A DNA stretch of 64,000 nucleotides from Candidatus Omnitrophota bacterium (GCA_021108075.1 JAIORP010000030.1:133-64132); one strand, 5' to 3'; shown: positions 8,405-48,787, counted from the first letter of the stretch. The notes: generated from the sequence alone by a model not told the origin. A program made the numbers and translations.

Positions 8405-9331
8405 ATGAAAAGAGATTTGCTGAGCCTGCAGGATCTAACTCGTCCAGAAATATTTCGTGTTTTAGATTTAACCGAAAAGGTGAAATCTGACCGATCCGGT
8501 TATCAGACGGCTTTGCAGGGAAAATCGATCGCCCTTGTTTTTCAGAAGCCTTCTAATCGCACGCGCGTTTCCTTTGAAGTCGGCATCAATCAATTAGGGG
8601 GTAACTGTATTTACCTGGGACCGACGGAAATTAACCTGGGTGTCCGCGAGTCGGTTGAAGACGTCTCAAAAACATTGTCCCGTTATTTGGATGGGATTAT
8701 TGCGCGGACTTTTTATCATCAGGATATTGTTGAATTAAGTAAGAATTCTTCAATATCTATTGTTAATGGTTTATCCGATTTATATCATCCTTGCCAGGCC
8801 TTAACAGATATATTTTCATTTAAGGAAAAGGTTGGAACGCTTGAAGGCCGGACGCTTGCCTATATCGGCGATGGCAATAACGTCTGTCATTCCTTGTTGT
8901 TAGCCTGTTCTAAGGTCGGGATTAACATGAACATTGCCACGCCTCCGGGCTATGAGCCTGATGTTGAAATACTGAAGATTGCACAAGCATCAGCCGATTT
9001 GACAAATGCCAAATTATTTTTGACGCATGATCCCCTGGAAGCTTCGGATGGCGTTGACGTTATATATACGGATGTTTGGGTCAGTATGGGGCAGGAAGAA
9101 GAGCAAAAGAAACGTTTATCTGATTTTCAAGGATTTCAAATCAATAGCAATTTTTTTGCGCGAGCCAATTCGAACGCTATCTTTATGCATTGTTTGCCCG
9201 CTCATAGGGATCAGGAAGTTTCCGTCGAGGTTATCGATGGTCCTCAGTCAATTGTTTTTGATCAGGCCGAGAACCGTCTGCATACCCAGAAAGCAATCCT
9301 ACTGTTTTTGATGGAGGGATTGTCGTCATAA
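8405..9331 (+). CDS. argF: Ornithine carbamoyltransferase
   Basis: It has STRTR-type carbamoyl-phosphate binding (SNRTRVSFE), an HPCQ motif and HCLPAHR. Confidence 0.88.
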   Translation: MKRDLLSLQDLTRPEIFRVLDLTEKVKSDRSGYQTALQGKSIALVFQKPSNRTRVSFEVGINQLGGNCIYLGPTEINLGVRESVEDVSKTLSRYLDGIIARTFYHQDIVELSKNSSISIVNGLSDLYHPCQALTDIFSFKEKVGTLEGRTLAYIGDGNNVCHSLLLACSKVGINMNIATPPGYEPDVEILKIAQASADLTNAKLFLTHDPLEASDGVDVIYTDVWVSMGQEEEQKKRLSDFQGFQINSNFFARANSNAIFMHCLPAHRDQEVSVEVIDGPQSIVFDQAENRLHTQKAILLFLMEGLSS

Positions 9332-16057: not shown

Positions 16058-17224
16058 ATGTCTTTTAATATTGAATTCTCCGATAGATTAAAAAAATTAC
16101 CGCCATATCTCTTTATTGAGATTGAAAAAGCTAAGCGCGAAGCGCTTGCCGATGGCCGTGATGTGATTAATTTAGGCGTGGGGGATCCTGATATTCCGAC
16201 GCCACAACACATTATAGATGCCATGAAAGAAGCTGTTCAGGACCCGAATAATCACCACTATGCGTTGGATGCCGGTTTGGCGGCGCTAAGATCGGAGATC
16301 GCGAACTGGTTTGGGCAACGTTTTTCCGTTTCCCTGAATCCGGAAACAGAAATTTATCCGGTCCTGGGATCCAAAGAAGGGTTAGCGCATTTGCCCTTAG
16401 GTATCATTAATCCGAAAGATAAGATCCTTCTGACAGATCCTGCTTATCCTGCCTACCGTCCGACGATCACGTTTGCCGGAGGCCGAATCATGAATGTTCC
16501 TATGAAAGCGGGCAACGCCTTTTTGCCGAATATTTCAAAAATAGCCGAGTATAAGGATATCAAAATGCTGGTCATCAATTATCCTAATAATCCGACGGCG
16601 GCAACGGCGACCAAAGAATTTTATCAAGACCTTGTTGATCTGGCCAAAGAGAAGGGTTTTATTATTTGTTCGGATATGGCGTATTCAGAGGTGTATTTTG
16701 ACGGAGAAAAGCCGCCGAGTATTTTAGAAATTGACGGTGCCAGAGAGGTCGCGATAGAATTTCATTCTTTTTCAAAAACATATGCCATGACGGGCTGGCG
16801 AATCGGCTGGGCGTGTGGTAACGAAACTTTAGTTGCGGCTTTAGCTAAAGTTAAGTCAAATTATGACTCTGGAATTTTTCAGGCTGTCCAATGCGCGGGG
16901 ATCGCCGCCCTTAAAACAGATCCGGTCATATTGGATGATATGCGCGGTTTGTTCCAGGATCGCCGTGATTATCTGATTAATGGTCTCAGATCCATCGGGT
17001 GGAAGATTCCTTCGCCTAAAGCGGCTTTTTACGTTTGGGCTAAGATCCCGAAGGGCTTTAAGGATTCAATGGAAACAGCCCGAATTTTTTTAGATAAGGC
17101 TGATATCGTCATAACTCCGGGAGTCGGGTTTGGCCCTGAGGGTGAAGGCTATATCCGTATGGCCTTGACTGTTCCCGTTGACCGTATCAATGAAGCTGTT
17201 GGCCGTATAGCTAAGATATTGTAA
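16058..17224 (+). CDS. dapL: LL-diaminopimelate aminotransferase (DapL-type class I aminotransferase)
   Basis: It has the N-terminus RLKKLPPYLFIEIEKAK...VINLGVGDPDIPTP characteristic of DapL. Its genomic context is lysA-dapF-dapA-dapB, with no dapD, dapC or dapE. An alternative start at 16052 is possible. Confidence 0.6.
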   Translation: MSFNIEFSDRLKKLPPYLFIEIEKAKREALADGRDVINLGVGDPDIPTPQHIIDAMKEAVQDPNNHHYALDAGLAALRSEIANWFGQRFSVSLNPETEIYPVLGSKEGLAHLPLGIINPKDKILLTDPAYPAYRPTITFAGGRIMNVPMKAGNAFLPNISKIAEYKDIKMLVINYPNNPTAATATKEFYQDLVDLAKEKGFIICSDMAYSEVYFDGEKPPSILEIDGAREVAIEFHSFSKTYAMTGWRIGWACGNETLVAALAKVKSNYDSGIFQAVQCAGIAALKTDPVILDDMRGLFQDRRDYLINGLRSIGWKIPSPKAAFYVWAKIPKGFKDSMETARIFLDKADIVITPGVGFGPEGEGYIRMALTVPVDRINEAVGRIAKIL

Positions 17225-17227
17225 CTT

Positions 17228-17331
17228 ATACCAATTCCATTAAATAATTTTCAAAACCGATTCTGTTTTTTTCGACGTTTAAGCAAGAATATCAGAATTG
17301 AAATAGAACAATTAATGAATGGGTTTGGTAT
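17228..17331. repeat. Palindromic intergenic repeat element, copy A (about 100 bp, with an imperfect 21-nt terminal inverted repeat)
   Basis: ATACCAATTCCATTAAATAAT ... ATAGAACAATTAATGAATGGGTTTGGTAT, with an inner hairpin GATTCTG/CAGAAT. A second copy lies at 25857-25939. Confidence 0.7.
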
Positions 17332-17354
17332 TAGTTGATTTTGAGGAGTACATT

Positions 17355-17777
17355 TTGGCAATCGTATTTATTGCTTTTGGATCCAACTCAGGTAATCGAC
17401 GAAATTATATCTCTCAAGCATTAAATAGCATGGAGGAACTTGGGATTGAGCTCCTTCAGGTTTCCTCTTTTCATGAAACAGAACCTGTCGGTGGCCCCTC
17501 TGGTCAGATGAAATATCTTAACGGCGTTGCCAAAGTGAAGACATCATTAACGCCTGTTCTATTTTTGGACCGACTGCAGCAGATTGAAAAGAATTTAGGC
17601 CGTGAACGGAGTGTTCCTGACGCTCCGCGAACTATCGATCTGGATATCCTGTTATATGATGACTTGAAAGTGCAGACAGATCGTCTAACCATCCCCCATC
17701 CTCGCATGTGGCAACGCACGTTTGTCCTGAACCCTCTGGAAGAAATAGCCCCTGAAATTGTAGAAGGAGGTCCTTGA
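17355..17777 (+). CDS. folK: 2-amino-4-hydroxy-6-hydroxymethyldihydropteridine pyrophosphokinase (HPPK)
   Basis: It has the HPPK core ...IAFGSNSGNR...ETEPVGGP...RTIDLDILLY...PHPRMWQRTFVL. The ORF-track ATG at 17319 lies inside the repeat element. A likely TTG start at 17355 has GAGGAG 7 nt upstream. Confidence 0.75.
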   Translation: MAIVFIAFGSNSGNRRNYISQALNSMEELGIELLQVSSFHETEPVGGPSGQMKYLNGVAKVKTSLTPVLFLDRLQQIEKNLGRERSVPDAPRTIDLDILLYDDLKVQTDRLTIPHPRMWQRTFVLNPLEEIAPEIVEGGP

Positions 17778-19641: not shown

Positions 19642-20058
19642 ATGGCTAAAAAGGTTGCCAAAGTCGGTGTAAAGAAAGAAGCTGGTTTCTTGTACTTCGT
19701 TGACAAGGATGGTGATATTTCTTGTGCAAAGATGGCGCGCGGCAATAAAAAAGGGGGAAAACCTAAAAAAGCAGCTAAGGTTGGAATCACTAAGGAGTCA
19801 GGTTTACTGTACTTTATAGACAAAGATGGTGATATCTCCTGCGCAAAAATGGTTCGTGGCGGTAAGAAAAAGAAAAAAGCTGCTAAGAAAAAAACAGCCA
19901 AAAAGACAGTTGTTAAGAAAAAAGTTGCCAAGAAAAAAGTAGTCAAGAAAAAAGCAGCCAAGAAGAAAGTCGTTAAGAAAAAGGTTGTAAAAAAGAAAGC
20001 AGCAAAGAAAAAAGTCGTTAAGAAAAAACCAGCTAAGAAAAAAGCTAAAAAGAAATAG
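19642..20058 (+). CDS. Lysine-rich histone H1-like protein with a tandemly duplicated roughly 30-aa N-terminal module
   Basis: The module KVGVKKEAGFLYFVDKDGDISCAKMARG occurs twice. It is followed by a (V/A)KKK(V/A)(V/A)KK tail encoded by tandem 24-nt repeats. A strong AAGGAGG site and a downstream terminator are present. Confidence 0.6.
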   Translation: MAKKVAKVGVKKEAGFLYFVDKDGDISCAKMARGNKKGGKPKKAAKVGITKESGLLYFIDKDGDISCAKMVRGGKKKKKAAKKKTAKKTVVKKKVAKKKVVKKKAAKKKVVKKKVVKKKAAKKKVVKKKPAKKKAKKK

Positions 20059-23323: not shown

Positions 23324-25840
23324 ATGAAATTAAAAATATTAATATTACTTTTTAGTGTTCTCTCATTCACTTCCATATTCCAACCTGACATGCTTTTTTC
23401 TACCGCTTGGGCTAAGAATCAGGAGAAGGAATTGTTCCTGGTTGCTCAAAAAGCATTTGAAGATGGTTTTTATGATGTCGCGATTAGATACATTGAACAA
23501 TTGATACAGGAATATCCACAGACGGAACACCTGGTGCAGTCGAAATTATTGTTAGGTCAATGTTATTTCTTCCAGAGCCAATATTTAAAGGCCTATGATA
23601 TTTTTAACAGCTTGCTTAAATATGCCGAATTTAAGGATGCGACATTATTTTGGTTGGGAGAAACTTTTTTAAAAGGCATGGATTATGGCCAGGCAGAAAA
23701 GAATTACCGGCAGTTGATCGCATTATTTCCCGAGTCATCCTATGCGCCGCAGGCGTATTATTCTTTGGGGTGGACATATTTTGAACAGGAAAAATATGCG
23801 GATTCCCAACAATCGTTTGCCGAATTCGTTGATAAATACCCGCGCCATCAGTTAGCAGAAGATGCCGCTTTTAAGGTCGGTGAGTCTTATTTTCATTTGC
23901 GGGAATATAATGACGCGATTAATGCCTTTAAGAATTATTTGCAGTATTATCAACAAACAGGCCGCCATGCTGAAGCCTATTTTTATTTGGCCGAATCTTT
24001 TTATTACCAGGATGAATATCAGCAAGCTGTTGATTATTACCGTTTGTCTGTGGATAAGGCATTAGATAAGAGGTTGATTATGATGAACAGTTTAAGCTTG
24101 GGATGGGGTTATTTAAAATTGATGAATTATGAGGACTCGGAACGCAGTTTTAGAGCGGCTTTAGAACTGTCTTATGAGAAAAAAATTCCTTCGGATGATA
24201 TTTATTTAGGGTTAGCGGGGTTATATGTTGAGCAAAAGAGGTTTAATGAAGCTTTAACAGCATATGATAAATTGATTCAGGAATATCCCCAAAGTTCAAG
24301 AATGATTGACGCTTTACTGGGCAAAGCCAATATCCATTATTTGCTTGAAGAATACGATCAAGCGATAACGACATATAAAACTGTCATTGAAAATTTTATT
24401 GCATTAAATTCAGACGGAAACACCTTGTCCGACCAAATGTATGATGACCTTTTGGAAAAAACATATTTTGGGCTTGCTTGGGCTTATTTGAAAAAGGGAG
24501 ATCTGAATCAATCGATCATAGCTTTTGAGACGATTAAAGACAAAGCCAAAAGTAAGGTTGTTAAGATTAGTGCCTTAACGCAGATTGGTGATGCTTTTCA
24601 AGATGTTGACCAGCTTGAGCGGGCCGTTGGTATTTACGATCAGATCCTAAAGGACTATACGGATAGTCCCTATGCGGACTACGTTCAATATCGTCAAGGA
24701 ATTGCTTTGTTGAAAATGGGTGAGATTGAAGCTGCAACGCTTTCTTTTCAAAGCCTGCAATTGAACTTTCCACAAAGCAGCTATCTCAATGATGTTGAGT
24801 ACTATCTTGCAGTAGCCTATTTTAAAAAAGGTGATTGGTTGACAGCAAAAGACCATATCGAGAAATTTTTAACAGACAAATCTTATAATTATGAGTTCGG
24901 AGCCGAGGCTTATTATATTTTGGCGCTGACCAATTTTAATATCCCGGACTATCAGGCGGCCTTAAAGACATTCCAGAAAATTGTTAGGGGTTATCCTCAA
25001 GAAAGAATGATTATTCGGACGTCTGAACTTAGTATTGCCAAGTGTTATTATAAATTGGGCAAGGTTAATGAAGCGTTAAAGAAATTTAAAATACTTATTT
25101 TTAAATATCCTGAAACAGAAATATCCCAGGAAGCTTTGATTTGGTTGGGGGATCATTATTTGGAAGCAGGCGATTATAATAATGCGGTTGCTTATTATAA
25201 ACAATTTATTGAGATTTTTCCCGGCAGCCCTAAAATTAGCATCATTTATTATGAGCTCGGTCAAGCTTATATCGCGTCAGAAGCCTATGACAAGGCTGTT
25301 AATGTGCTGAAGAAAGTTAGTGACCCAAAAGACGGGGATGTTTATGTCAAAGCCAAGTTAGCCATCGCCGATATTTTTGCCCGGGACTTTGAATCTGAAT
25401 CTGCCATTGAAACTTATGAAAATATTATCTATCATTCTCCAGAATTTAAGCGTGACGCCTATGTGAAAATGGCGGGTGTGTATAAAAAGATTTCCGACTA
25501 TGATAATACGCTGGTCGCGTATCAAAAAGCTTTAGAATCTAAAAGGGGGTTGAGTGCCATCAAGAACGTGCAGTTACAGTTTTTTATTGCTGAAACGTAT
25601 GAAATTTTGAATCAAAGAGACCTGGCGGTCAAAGAATATTTTAGAATTCCGTATTTATATGAAAAAAAAGTCGAATGGGTTGTGCGGTCCTACTTAAGGA
25701 TCGCGAAATTATTTGAGCACCAGGAGAGGTGGGATGATGTTAAGCTGATTTATCAGAAAATTATTGAGTTAAAGACAGATGAATCGGTTTTTGCTGAAGA
25801 ACGTATTGAATGGCTTCGTGAGCATAATCACATCAAATGA
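23324..25840 (+). CDS. Large secreted tetratricopeptide-repeat (TPR) protein (838 aa)
   Basis: It has an N-terminal signal peptide (LILLFSVLSFTSIF...AWA). More than 15 TPR-like units (YY.LG..Y, AI..Y..L...YP) run throughout. It heads the ExbBD and pilus gene block. Confidence 0.7.
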   Translation: MKLKILILLFSVLSFTSIFQPDMLFSTAWAKNQEKELFLVAQKAFEDGFYDVAIRYIEQLIQEYPQTEHLVQSKLLLGQCYFFQSQYLKAYDIFNSLLKYAEFKDATLFWLGETFLKGMDYGQAEKNYRQLIALFPESSYAPQAYYSLGWTYFEQEKYADSQQSFAEFVDKYPRHQLAEDAAFKVGESYFHLREYNDAINAFKNYLQYYQQTGRHAEAYFYLAESFYYQDEYQQAVDYYRLSVDKALDKRLIMMNSLSLGWGYLKLMNYEDSERSFRAALELSYEKKIPSDDIYLGLAGLYVEQKRFNEALTAYDKLIQEYPQSSRMIDALLGKANIHYLLEEYDQAITTYKTVIENFIALNSDGNTLSDQMYDDLLEKTYFGLAWAYLKKGDLNQSIIAFETIKDKAKSKVVKISALTQIGDAFQDVDQLERAVGIYDQILKDYTDSPYADYVQYRQGIALLKMGEIEAATLSFQSLQLNFPQSSYLNDVEYYLAVAYFKKGDWLTAKDHIEKFLTDKSYNYEFGAEAYYILALTNFNIPDYQAALKTFQKIVRGYPQERMIIRTSELSIAKCYYKLGKVNEALKKFKILIFKYPETEISQEALIWLGDHYLEAGDYNNAVAYYKQFIEIFPGSPKISIIYYELGQAYIASEAYDKAVNVLKKVSDPKDGDVYVKAKLAIADIFARDFESESAIETYENIIYHSPEFKRDAYVKMAGVYKKISDYDNTLVAYQKALESKRGLSAIKNVQLQFFIAETYEILNQRDLAVKEYFRIPYLYEKKVEWVVRSYLRIAKLFEHQERWDDVKLIYQKIIELKTDESVFAEERIEWLREHNHIK

Positions 25841-25856
25841 TGTTTTGTGCCATCTA

Positions 25857-25939
25857 ATACCAATTCCATTAAATAATGACCAAACCCAATTCTGCTTTTC
25901 AGAATTAAGATAGAACAATTTATTAATGGATTTGGTATA
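25857..25939. repeat. Palindromic intergenic repeat element, copy B
   Basis: ATACCAATTCCATTAAATAAT ... ATAGAACAATTTATTAATGGATTTGGTATA, with the inner hairpin ATTCTG-CTTTT-CAGAAT. It is homologous to copy A at 17228-17331. Confidence 0.7.
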
Positions 25940-25988
25940 ACTTTGAATGAATTGAAACCGTTGTTTGTAACCGGAGGAGGAATCGATA

Positions 25989-26645
25989 ATGAGTAATGGT
26001 ATCTGGGAAATGAATTTGTGGCAGTTAATTAAGACGGGCGGGCCGATAATGTACCCGATATTGCTTTGTTCCCTTTTTGCTTTTGCCATTATAATCGAGA
26101 AAATAGTTTATTTTTCGATTATCAGAGAAAATGTTCCTGCTTTAAAAAGACAGGTTTTTGAGCATGTGAAAAAGAATAAAATCAAAGAAGCCATAGCGGT
26201 TTGTGATAATCAACGGACACCGGTAGCAAAAATACTCAAGGCCGGGATCGTCAAATTTGGAGCTTCCCGTGACAAAATAAAAGAAAATATTGAAGATATA
26301 AGTTTGTTTGAAATACCGAAGTTAGAAAAGAGATTGCCGGCGTTGGCGACGATAGCGCATATTACCCCGTTGTTGGGATTATTAGGGACGGTAACTGGTA
26401 TGGTTTCCAGTTTTCATACGATTCAGGTCCGTGCGGCTACTATGAACCCTGTGACGCCAGGTGATTTAGCTGGAAGTATTGGGGAAGCCTTGTTTACAAC
26501 GGTTGCCGGATTAATGGTGGCTATTCCGACTTTTGTTGTTTACAACTACCTTGTTAGCCGGGTTAATGGTTTTATTTTAGAGATGGAAAGAGGCGCAACC
26601 GAGATTGTTAACCTCATCTGCCAAATTTCTGAATCGGGAGTTTAG
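25989..26645 (+). CDS. MotA/TolQ/ExbB-family proton channel
   Basis: It has three transmembrane segments and the family motif ...TPLLGLLGTVTGMVSSF... It is 218 aa with a GGAGGAGG ribosome-binding site. Confidence 0.8.
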   Translation: MSNGIWEMNLWQLIKTGGPIMYPILLCSLFAFAIIIEKIVYFSIIRENVPALKRQVFEHVKKNKIKEAIAVCDNQRTPVAKILKAGIVKFGASRDKIKENIEDISLFEIPKLEKRLPALATIAHITPLLGLLGTVTGMVSSFHTIQVRAATMNPVTPGDLAGSIGEALFTTVAGLMVAIPTFVVYNYLVSRVNGFILEMERGATEIVNLICQISESGV

Positions 26646-36058: not shown

Positions 36059-36481
36059 TTGAACATGAATTTAAATAACAAAAGTGGTTTTACATTACTC
36101 GAAATTATCATTGTCATCATCATCGTTGGTGTACTCGCCAGTTTAGCATTACCTCGATTTTTCAGCACCGTGGAATTCTCCAGAAGTACAGAAGCTCTTT
36201 CAGCATCAAGTTCAATCCGTCAATCATTAGAGCGATGTTATTTAGGGAATAATGGGAATTATGTCGGCTGTACGCTAGCCGCGATTGACTTAGCTGATCC
36301 CGGCGGATCACCAGGTGCTCATTTCGCGTATGCTATTGCTGGTCAAAGCGCCACAGGATACACAATCACAGCGACAAGAAACGCTATTAATGGCGGTGAC
36401 GGCACATCAGCAATCACCCTCACTCAATCTGCTGCGGGTGTTGCAAGAGCGGGTACAGGCGTTTTCGTTGGCATTAAATAA
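36059..36481 (+). CDS. Type IV pilin (probable major pilin)
   Basis: It has the class III signal ...KSG/FTLLEIIIVIIIVGVLASLALP. AAGGAG sits 6 nt upstream. A long hairpin follows it. An alternative start at 36065 is possible. Confidence 0.85.
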   Translation: MNMNLNNKSGFTLLEIIIVIIIVGVLASLALPRFFSTVEFSRSTEALSASSSIRQSLERCYLGNNGNYVGCTLAAIDLADPGGSPGAHFAYAIAGQSATGYTITATRNAINGGDGTSAITLTQSAAGVARAGTGVFVGIK

Positions 36482-36510: not shown

Positions 36511-36565
36511 CCTAAATAGCGACATCGAAGTTTTATTCATTAAGACTTCGATGTCGCTATTTAGG
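36511..36565 (+). promoter_or_regulatory. Perfect 21-bp inverted repeat (hairpin) between the major and downstream pilin genes
   Basis: CCTAAATAGCGACATCGAAGT-(13-nt loop)-ACTTCGATGTCGCTATTTAGG. There is no U-tract. Confidence 0.6.
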
Positions 36566-36591
36566 CGTCCTGAAACAAATGGTGATTGCTT

Positions 36592-36975
36592 ATGATATTC
36601 AGTCAGAAAGGTTTCACATTATTAGAGGTATTGATCACTATGATCATTATTGGGGCAATGGCTTCCATCGCCTGGCCCAGCTTTGTTGTCACAATTGAAC
36701 GGGCAAAATCGGCTGAAGGGGTTCAGATCCTGGAAGTCATAATGGGTTCCCAAAAGATATATAAATTAGAAAATGGGGTTTATTCCAATACTATGGCAAA
36801 CTTAGAAGTCTCAATCCCTGCCGCCAGTAATTTTAATGCCCCGACATTGAGCACGTCCAATCCAATCGCTTCTATTCAACGAAAAGATAATTTATATACA
36901 TTGTCCATTACGGACGCCGGGGTAATCGCCTGTTCCAATGGTACTGTAACATACTGTCAAAAGATAGGGTATTAG
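36592..36975 (+). CDS. Type IV pilin or minor pilin
   Basis: It has the leader MIFSQKG/FTLLEVLITMIIIGAMASIAWP. Confidence 0.8.
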   Translation: MIFSQKGFTLLEVLITMIIIGAMASIAWPSFVVTIERAKSAEGVQILEVIMGSQKIYKLENGVYSNTMANLEVSIPAASNFNAPTLSTSNPIASIQRKDNLYTLSITDAGVIACSNGTVTYCQKIGY

Positions 36976-48061: not shown

Positions 48062-48787
48062 ATGATTATCTATCCGGCGATTGATATTAAAGATGGAAAA
48101 GTCGTAAGGTTGTTGCAGGGTAAATTTGATCAGGTTACCGAGTATTCGCAAACTCCTGTCGATGTGGCTCAACATTGGAAAGATGAAGGGGCCCAGTGGT
48201 TGCATGTTGTTGATTTAGACGGCGCGCGTACGGGTGAGGTGGTGAATATGGATTTGATTCATCAGATTGCCAGGGAGGTTTCCATCTCTGTACAGATGGG
48301 CGGGGGCGTGCGTCAGCTAGAAGATATCCAACGCCTGTTAGAGGGGGGTGTCTCGCGGGTTATTCTCGGCACAAAGGTTGTCCAAGACCTGGCATTTTTA
48401 AAAGAAGCCCTTTCAAAATGGGGGGAACAGATCGCGGTCAGCTTGGATTGTTCGAACGGTTTCATCGCAACCATGGGCTGGACACATACCTCGGAGTTGA
48501 AAGTGATCGACTTTATTAAAGAAATTGACGCGATGGGAGTAAAGAATATCATCTATACGGATATCGCGCAAGATGGCATGTTGTCCGGACCAAATTACAC
48601 GGCGATAAATGAGTTGCTCAGTTGCACCAATATCCCTGTGATTCTGTCAGGCGGTGTCGCAACGATAGATGACGTTAGAAAAATAAAACGAATGTCTGAG
48701 AACAGCGTTAAGGGTATTATTATTGGAAAAGCTCTGTACGAAAAGAAACTTGACTTAAAAGAGGCATTAGCCATAGCGAGATTGTAA
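48062..48787 (+). CDS. hisA: ProFAR isomerase
   Basis: It has the N-terminus MIIYPAIDIKDGKVVRL and a (beta/alpha)8 fold. Confidence 0.85.
   Translation: MIIYPAIDIKDGKVVRLLQGKFDQVTEYSQTPVDVAQHWKDEGAQWLHVVDLDGARTGEVVNMDLIHQIAREVSISVQMGGGVRQLEDIQRLLEGGVSRVILGTKVVQDLAFLKEALSKWGEQIAVSLDCSNGFIATMGWTHTSELKVIDFIKEIDAMGVKNIIYTDIAQDGMLSGPNYTAINELLSCTNIPVILSGGVATIDDVRKIKRMSENSVKGIIIGKALYEKKLDLKEALAIARL

Follow-up and report, generated by a model that had tools for sequence, protein, structure and literature searches.

Directly downstream of dapL, in the 64-kb stretch of Candidatus Omnitrophota DNA analyzed here (the window), lies a palindrome of roughly 100 bp that overlaps the predicted start of folK. 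The locus raises two questions, namely what kind of element this is and where folK begins. An earlier note, made from the sequence, had left the first question open between a REP- or MITE-like repeat, a terminator, and a regulatory hairpin. The MITE option stood, based on the terminal inverted repeats (TIRs), a 3-bp target duplication, many insertion sites, and IS630-type termini, whereas the REP and terminator options did not. We conclude with high confidence that the repeat is a MITE, a non-coding, internally deleted derivative of an IS630-family (Tc1/mariner-type DDE) element with TACCAATTCC… ends.

Anatomy of the two copies and the start of folK

The window holds two homologous, hairpin-forming elements, copy A at 17229–17330 (102 nt) and copy B at 25858–25937 (80 nt), both on the plus strand. 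The earlier note had recognized both, at 17228–17331 and 25857–25939, and the borders given here refine those positions. When the 64-kb window was searched with the family profile, just these two copies were returned, each in the plus orientation and 8.6 kb apart, with 74.6 bits for copy A (profile positions 1–104) and 45.9 bits for copy B. The two copies are 86% identical to each other over aligned positions, and their identity to the 103-nt family consensus, again over aligned positions, is 83% for A and 90% for B. Pairwise alignment revealed that 22 central nucleotides of copy A are missing from copy B, in which the top of the inner hairpin is deleted. A repeat search of the window likewise paired the left halves of the copies (46 nt, 85%) and their right halves (45 nt, 84%). 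Exact copies of the 21-mer ATACCAATTCCATTAAATAAT stand at 17228 and 25857, and a reverse complement with three mismatches lies at 25918–25938, which makes three matches in the window compared with 0.02 expected from dinucleotide-preserving shuffles.

The element proper runs from TACCAA to TTGGTA, between 3-bp direct repeats. Its outer 20 nt are the TIRs, complementary at 16 of 20 positions in copy A, 17 of 20 in copy B, and all 20 in the family consensus, in agreement with the imperfect reverse-complementary arms described before. In copy A, the target-site duplication TTA (17226–17228, identical to 17331–17333) encloses a left TIR, TACCAATTCCATTAAATAAT (17229–17248), identical to the consensus TIR, and a right TIR at 17311–17330 (reverse complement, TACCAAACCCATTCATTAAT). 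Between them, an inner hairpin at 17259–17299, with the previously noted arms GATTCTG (17259–17265) and CAGAATT (17293–17299), encloses a degenerate GTTTTTTTCG/CAAGAATATC stem and corresponds to the conserved inner helix of the family. Copy B is flanked by TAA (25855–25857, identical to 25938–25940), begins with the same left TIR, TACCAATTCCATTAAATAAT (25858–25877), and ends in a right TIR at 25918–25937 (reverse complement, TACCAAATCCATTAATAAAT); its residual inner hairpin, AATTCTG-CTTTT-CAGAATT, occupies 25888–25906 (arms at 25888–25894 and 25900–25906). Apart from the target-site duplications, these parts are assigned to the plus strand. The G+C content of the elements is 27.5%, compared with 41% for the window, and they have no coding capacity, being too short for a transposase. 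Both copies follow a plus-strand gene at the 4–17 nt reported earlier, as the dapL stop codon ends at 17224 and that of a TPR-protein gene at 25840.

The ATG at 17319 from which the ORF track had started folK belongs to the repeat, as had been proposed; it lies inside the right TIR of copy A and is a spurious start. The proposed alternative, TTG 17355 preceded by GAGGAG, proved sound. This codon is in frame, 6 nt past the GAGGAG at 17343–17348, and opens a 140-aa product (MAIVFIAFGSN…) that covers the full Pfam HPPK profile (1–116 of 116) from residue 5; the corrected folK (HPPK) feature spans 17343–17777 on the plus strand, with its stop codon at 17775–17777. In the contig that carries the closest DapL relative (78% identity), dapL and folK are separated by 24 nt, the HPPK gene starts ATG GCC ATT GTT, and its N terminus from the annotated start (MAIVYLGIGSN) aligns with that of the window protein. 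Subtracting the element and one TTA from the window's spacer leaves 25 nt, compared with 24 nt in this relative, and the locus would then read …TAAC-TTA-GTTGATTTT…. For annotation, this means that the element creates a false folK start codon and would do so for other genes that adjoin it. ORFs artificially stretched into the element were seen at several loci.

Copy B lies 14 nt past the stop codon of the TPR-protein gene and upstream of exbB. The contig with the closest DapL relative, 47 kb long, loses synteny with the window after uvrA, and relatives of ExbB were used for this locus instead. One contig with a conserved uvrA-TPR-exbB order has a 220-nt, G+C-rich TPR-exbB spacer that lacks the element. 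Another (JGI 3300009513, ExbB 77% identical) carries a 34-nt element remnant in the same spacer at 2248–2290, which reads TAA-TGCCAAAT AGGACAATTATTTAATAG ATTTGGCA-TAA, with the TPR stop codon as its left TAA. Either the insertion is old and shared, or the spacer is a hot spot. These empty-site comparisons draw on relatives with about 75–78% protein identity, whose spacers are too diverged for base-level alignment.

Insertion sites and target-site duplication

The earlier note had raised the possibility that the element is absent elsewhere; many further loci were found, in other MAGs and in metagenome contigs. A scan with ATACCAAWYCCATTMAWWAAT, covering one genome per species, returned at least 46 loci. 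Contigs with paired plus and minus TIR matches about 84 nt apart were numerous in CAZIRV01, a MAG labeled "uncultured Planctomycetales" in which the element is densest, and in JAJDCA01 (Candidatus Omnitrophota OFTM38); some of these contigs hold five or six copies per 8 kb. A second, family-specific pattern matched 19 metagenome contigs (VAPK01, the vent metagenome UOGJ01, and a marine-sediment assembly), part of which duplicate CAZIRV01 loci. We tabulated 38 full copies, in which one site is counted twice (L016/L072), corresponding to at least about 37 distinct insertion sites; at least about 35 of these lie in other genomes, beyond the two copies in the window. The source genome of the window, a Candidatus Omnitrophica MAG as judged from DapL and ExbB, which are 100% identical to MAG proteins at NCBI, was absent among the matches listed, and no counterpart of copy A was found by blastn among 72,556 plasmids.

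Independent assemblies bear on the copy number in the organism itself. Three short-read contigs from the same organism break within the two copies, one (L051) ending within copy A (window 17228–17258) and two (L085 and L086) beginning within copy B (window 25887–25937). Assemblers typically break at multi-copy repeats, so such breaks are expected, and they suggest that the element is multi-copy in those samples.

The aligned family copies measure 102–111 nt and have in common the TIRs, a GACCAAAA box, and an inner stem GCTTTTCTCG/CGAGAAnAGC, and their internal asymmetry gives every aligned copy a clear orientation. All examined copies are intergenic, the seeming overlaps being ORFs stretched to a start codon within the element, as with folK. 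By our reading of the gene context, divergent genes flank six copies and convergent genes flank two; between co-directional genes, seven have the orientation of the genes and six the opposite one.

Identical 3-bp sequences flank 27 of the 38 tabulated copies (TAA in 18, TTA in four, TGA in three, and TCA in two, one of the TCA pairs being the duplicate site), and the other 11 have imperfect duplications. When the right triplets were permuted among the copies, matches averaged 13.2 and stayed below 27 in all 100,000 permutations (p < 1e-5). An inverted rather than a direct relation between the triplets fits only five of the 38 copies, and T-N-A stands on both sides in 35 of 38. Plain TA duplication with a 1-nt asymmetric or ragged end was also considered and is excluded by the TGA/TGA and TCA/TCA pairs and by the invariant third base. 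When the triplets are read along the orientation of the element itself, 18 of the 38 copies have a TAA duplication and four a TTA duplication, which suggests that insertion is oriented relative to an asymmetric target. The left triplet coincides with the stop codon of the upstream ORF in five of 36 copies, compared with 3% under a rough null (p = 0.004); since TAA and TGA are stop codons, this use of stop codons fits a T-N-A target.

Classically, IS630/Tc1/mariner elements duplicate TA (PMC7386202, PMC6400869). The flanks found here are 3-bp T-N-A and not the canonical IS630 TA, so that the mechanism departs from the textbook for this family; judged from these flanks, the element group would work like IS630 but with a variant stagger. 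If confirmed, the T-N-A duplication would deviate slightly from the TA rule that holds for IS630/Tc1/mariner elements, a point of interest to transposition biochemists.

Relation to IS630-type elements

The ends of the MITE recur on full-length transposons. In Psychromonas marina contigs, TACCAATTCCATT(A/C)ATTAAT lies directly past the C terminus of an IS630-type transposase (…PYSPELNPIEQVW…), and the sequences TACCAATTCCATTAATTAAT (L007) and TACCAATTCCATTCATTAAT (L015) adjoin the 3′ end of the transposase gene, whose product (…HAVVIMDGASWHQ…PPYSPELNPIEQVWSWMRQN…) is an IS630-type DDE transposase. A tblastn search of plasmids retrieved elements annotated in RefSeq as "IS630 family transposase," three of which are complete and had borders that could be read: TAA-TACCAATC…GATTGGTA-TAA in the Vibrio sp. 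HDW18 plasmid NZ_CP049914, TAA-TACCAATCAGATT…GATTGGTA-TAA in the IMP-1 plasmid pN260-3 of Enterobacter roggenkampii (NZ_AP023450), and TTA-TACCATTCC…GGAATGGTA-TTA in the Pseudoalteromonas plasmid NZ_CP058973. Closer relatives in metagenomes are 1092–1119 bp long, carry an HTH ORF and a DDE_3 (PF13358) ORF, with ORF-B 75–90% identical, and have TACCAATTCC(A/G)… borders between TAA/TAA (L056, L058, and L059) or TTA/TTA (L060/L064). The 3-bp flanks match in seven of seven full-length insertions. In these full-length relatives, as opposed to the window element, the ORFs match PF13358 DDE_3 and HTH_23/29/32 and contain the motif PYSPELNPIEQVW.

The likeness extends inward from the tips. The MITE terminus agrees at 15–20 of 20 nt with the IS of the Psychromonas/L056 type, whose ends are identical to the first 15–16 nt of the left TIR of copy A, and over the first 8 nt with the plasmid IS; its right end matches the Psychromonas right end over about 25 nt (TACCAATTCCATTAAATAATTGCTC compared with TACCAATTCCATTCATTAATTGCTC), and its left subterminal GACCAAAAT resembles the GATCTAAT box of the IS left ends. 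IS630 elements with TACCAAT termini thus have the terminal sequence, the TAA/TTA 3-bp duplication, and the subterminal right end in common with the MITE, but they are about 1.1 kb long with an HTH and a DDE_3 ORF, whereas the window elements have 80–102 nt and no ORF, and their known hosts are Gammaproteobacteria or unassigned metagenome contigs, whereas the window MITE is from Omnitrophota. Since full-length IS630 elements end alike and show the 3-bp duplication as well, the MITE is a non-autonomous IS630 derivative, presumably mobilized in trans. It has what defines a MITE: it is small and non-coding, it carries TIRs with target duplications that differ between copies, it occupies many unrelated loci, and its termini are those of a transposase-bearing element.

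On this origin, an IS630-type transposase supplied in trans would bind both TIRs and excise the element, which would reinsert at a T-N-A site by a 3-nt staggered cut, and repair of the stagger would yield the flanking TTA/TTA of copy A and TAA/TAA of copy B. Copy A would have landed 1 nt past the dapL stop codon, within a former dapL-folK spacer of about 25 nt, and copy B would have landed at the 14-nt distance from the TPR-gene stop at which it is now found. Both copies are probably old, fossil-like, and immobile now, as suggested by their 83–90% consensus identity, their degenerate right TIRs, and the internal deletion in copy B. A tblastn search found no IS630-type partner transposase in the 64-kb window or beside the MITE copies examined. 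About 400 nt from a MITE copy in a hydrothermal vent metagenome contig (UOGJ01000123), the 3′ end of an IS630-type gene (…LPSYSPNLNLIERLWKFVKK…) occupies 9077–9318. We rejected this gene, the only match of the search, as the partner, as it belongs to a different subgroup and its end lacks a MITE-type TIR.

Several further arrangements were seen among the relatives. A 159-bp MITE-like element with TAA/TAA flanks lies beside the full IS in contig L056. Two JGI metagenome contigs (L062/L063, 1–1800) carry IS630 copies head to tail, a 5′ part from position 4 and a complete copy at 704, with outer flanks TTA…TTA and an internal TAA, an arrangement suggestive of nested insertion or of a tandem dimer. 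The 20-nt TIR also bounds elements of 83, 141, 177, and 182 nt in Bdellovibrionales MAGs (L001, L002, L017, L027, and L028) and one of 179 nt in Paraglaciecola chathamensis (L042); past the TIRs, their interiors gave no profile match, and TAA/TAA flanks occur in several. They are apparently distinct MITE families that this IS630 lineage drives in other phyla, and the presence of one TIR on elements of several lengths indicates that the transposase lineage spawned several MITE families. Near-identical ends in marine Gammaproteobacteria and Bdellovibrionales MAGs point to a transposase lineage that is widely shared or moves horizontally.

MITEs are a commonplace form of selfish DNA, but the present family appears to be undescribed so far. 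Our literature search found no MITE report for Omnitrophota and no bacterial IS630 subgroup with T-N-A duplications, although ISfinder, which lay outside this search, may already list such a subgroup. The element puts a mobile-element family on record for the uncultured phylum Omnitrophota, and it is unusual in duplicating TNA instead of TA, in frequently targeting stop codons, and in having near-identical transposon ends in distant lineages.

RUP of Streptococcus pneumoniae and Stowaway of plants are non-coding MITEs of about 100 nt, derived from IS630/Tc1-mariner elements, with TIRs taken from the parent. Like the window MITE, they are intergenic, hairpin-forming, and mobilized in trans, but they duplicate TA, whereas the present family duplicates 3 bp (T-N-A) and has no sequence similarity to them. 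Correia elements of Neisseria also duplicate TA and have no known parent transposase; effects on promoters, termination, and RNase III processing are documented in their case. Their resemblance to the window MITE lies in size class, TIRs, intergenic position, and hairpins. They are described as MITEs (CREE/NEMIS) of 100–155 nt with 20–26-nt TIRs, abundant between genes, often co-transcribed, and hairpin-forming, in a 2024 review of prokaryotic MITEs that treats Correia, RUP, BOX, and SPRITE as comparable, with occasional regulatory side-effects (PMC10969869). Within the IS630-Tc1-mariner group, the Fot elements of fungi (pogo superfamily) have a TAA rather than a TA duplication and were called a "new type" (PMC7386202). 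They differ from the window family in being eukaryotic and much longer, with pogo-type DDD transposases, and no TGA or TCA duplications are reported for them (PMC7386202).

Hairpin conservation, alternative origins, and other features of the window

Folding, which the earlier note had proposed as a check, placed both copies far below shuffled sequences: copy A folds at −27.0 kcal/mol (z = −4.35) and copy B at −21.7 kcal/mol (z = −6.09). Over 23 copies, 89% of the helix cells are paired, 95.6% in the TIR helix and 81% in the inner helix; RNAalifold returned the TIR helix alone, and the inner helix was set by hand. In controls with the helices slid out of register, pairing falls to 28–48%. Ten pairs are changed on both sides, a number that three of 500 shuffles reached.

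These figures, together with the position of both window copies just past stop codons, speak for a dispersed RNA hairpin evolved by the host, acting after genes as an intrinsic terminator, an mRNA stabilizer, or a small-RNA gene. We nevertheless consider such an origin very unlikely. Paired TIRs would be expected in every inverted-repeat transposon, since one protein binds at both of its ends. The stems are A+T-rich, and a terminator scan of copies A and B found no G+C-rich stem followed by a T-run. Nor did Rfam offer a match: none was found for the whole window at gathering thresholds, and at permissive thresholds the sole match of copy A at E ≤ 1 was a chance snoRNA (E = 0.43). A host element acting on transcripts is also at odds with the 7-to-6 split of orientations between co-directional genes and with the six copies between divergent genes. 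The minus strands of both copies fold with a stability comparable to that of the plus strands.

A secondary, co-opted RNA effect of the MITE may nonetheless exist. Selection on hairpins in DNA or RNA may account for the inner helix, or the helix may simply stem from the palindromic origin of the element. Effects of the insertions on the host would be by-products, one possibility being a stable hairpin of about 100 nt in the dapL-folK and TPR-exbB transcripts. A promoter scan gave a weak 9/12 promoter-like match that overlaps the left TIR of copy A. A broader proposal would join an IS630-type clade and its MITEs through a 3-nt T-N-A stagger, a preference for stop codons in which the duplication regenerates the stop, and an inner hairpin co-opted in Omnitrophota as an operon RNA element; as a whole, we regard it as rather unlikely.

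Being intergenic, palindromic, hairpin-forming, and dispersed, the element could also be likened to a REP/REPIN-type palindrome, spread without target duplication by a RAYT (IS200/IS605-like) single-strand transposase. REP/REPIN sequences lack the TIR-plus-duplication architecture and depend on RAYT, whereas the copies described here bear 3-bp direct target duplications and 20-nt TIR ends common to DDE-type IS630 elements, in units of 80–107 nt compared with a 20–40-nt palindrome. None of the inspected stretches showed an obvious RAYT-type gene, and we judge this reading to be extremely improbable.

A 3-bp TNA/TWA duplication is classic for Tourist MITEs (PIF-Harbinger) and for the IS1031 group of IS5, and the T-N-A duplication seen here, mostly TAA or TTA, is of the same kind. 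An IS5/Harbinger origin was in fact first favored for the TWA duplication, and it was dropped when the termini were found on IS630-type elements. The transposase superfamily differs, as the termini and the 3-bp duplication of the MITE are those of IS630-annotated HTH plus DDE_3 (PF13358) elements with the …YSPELNPIE… motif, and no IS5-type element with MITE-like ends was seen. That the MITE derives from an IS5 or PIF-Harbinger-type element is now scarcely credible. Virtually no weight attaches to a local segmental duplication or a chance palindrome, for which one could cite that the window has just two copies, separated by 8.6 kb and oriented alike: a duplication taking in flanking coding sequence, which the earlier note had considered, is excluded because the likeness of A and B is confined to the element borders and their flanks are unrelated beyond the 3-bp repeats, the sites in other genomes argue against a local event, and only 0.02 TIR matches are expected by chance.

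With the IS630-derived MITE as the preferred reading of copies A and B, three other features of the window can be set apart. A hairpin at 36511–36565 is near-perfect, its 25-nt arms being 96% complementary around a loop of 5 nt (CCTAAATAGCGACATCGAAGTTTTA/TAAGACTTCGATGTCGCTATTTAGG); it occupies the spacer between the plus-strand ORFs 36059–36481 and 36586–36975, has no T-run, occurs once in the window, and is unrelated to the MITE. At 19642–20058, a Lys/Ala-rich ORF of 138 aa shows a 15-nt (KKKxx) periodic repeat and has no Pfam match; a 144-aa ORF fills the same syntenic slot in a relative (L055), between an aspartate dehydrogenase-like gene and uvrA, and the product may be a histone-like or DNA-binding protein. 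Finally, a short repeat, GC(T/A)G(A/T)T(G/A)ATTAAGACGGG(G/C)GG, is present in three copies at 538–558, 26021–26041, and 48206–48226. The middle copy lies near the 5′ end of a MotA/ExbB-family gene (25989–26645), and paralogous exbB genes may lie at the other two.
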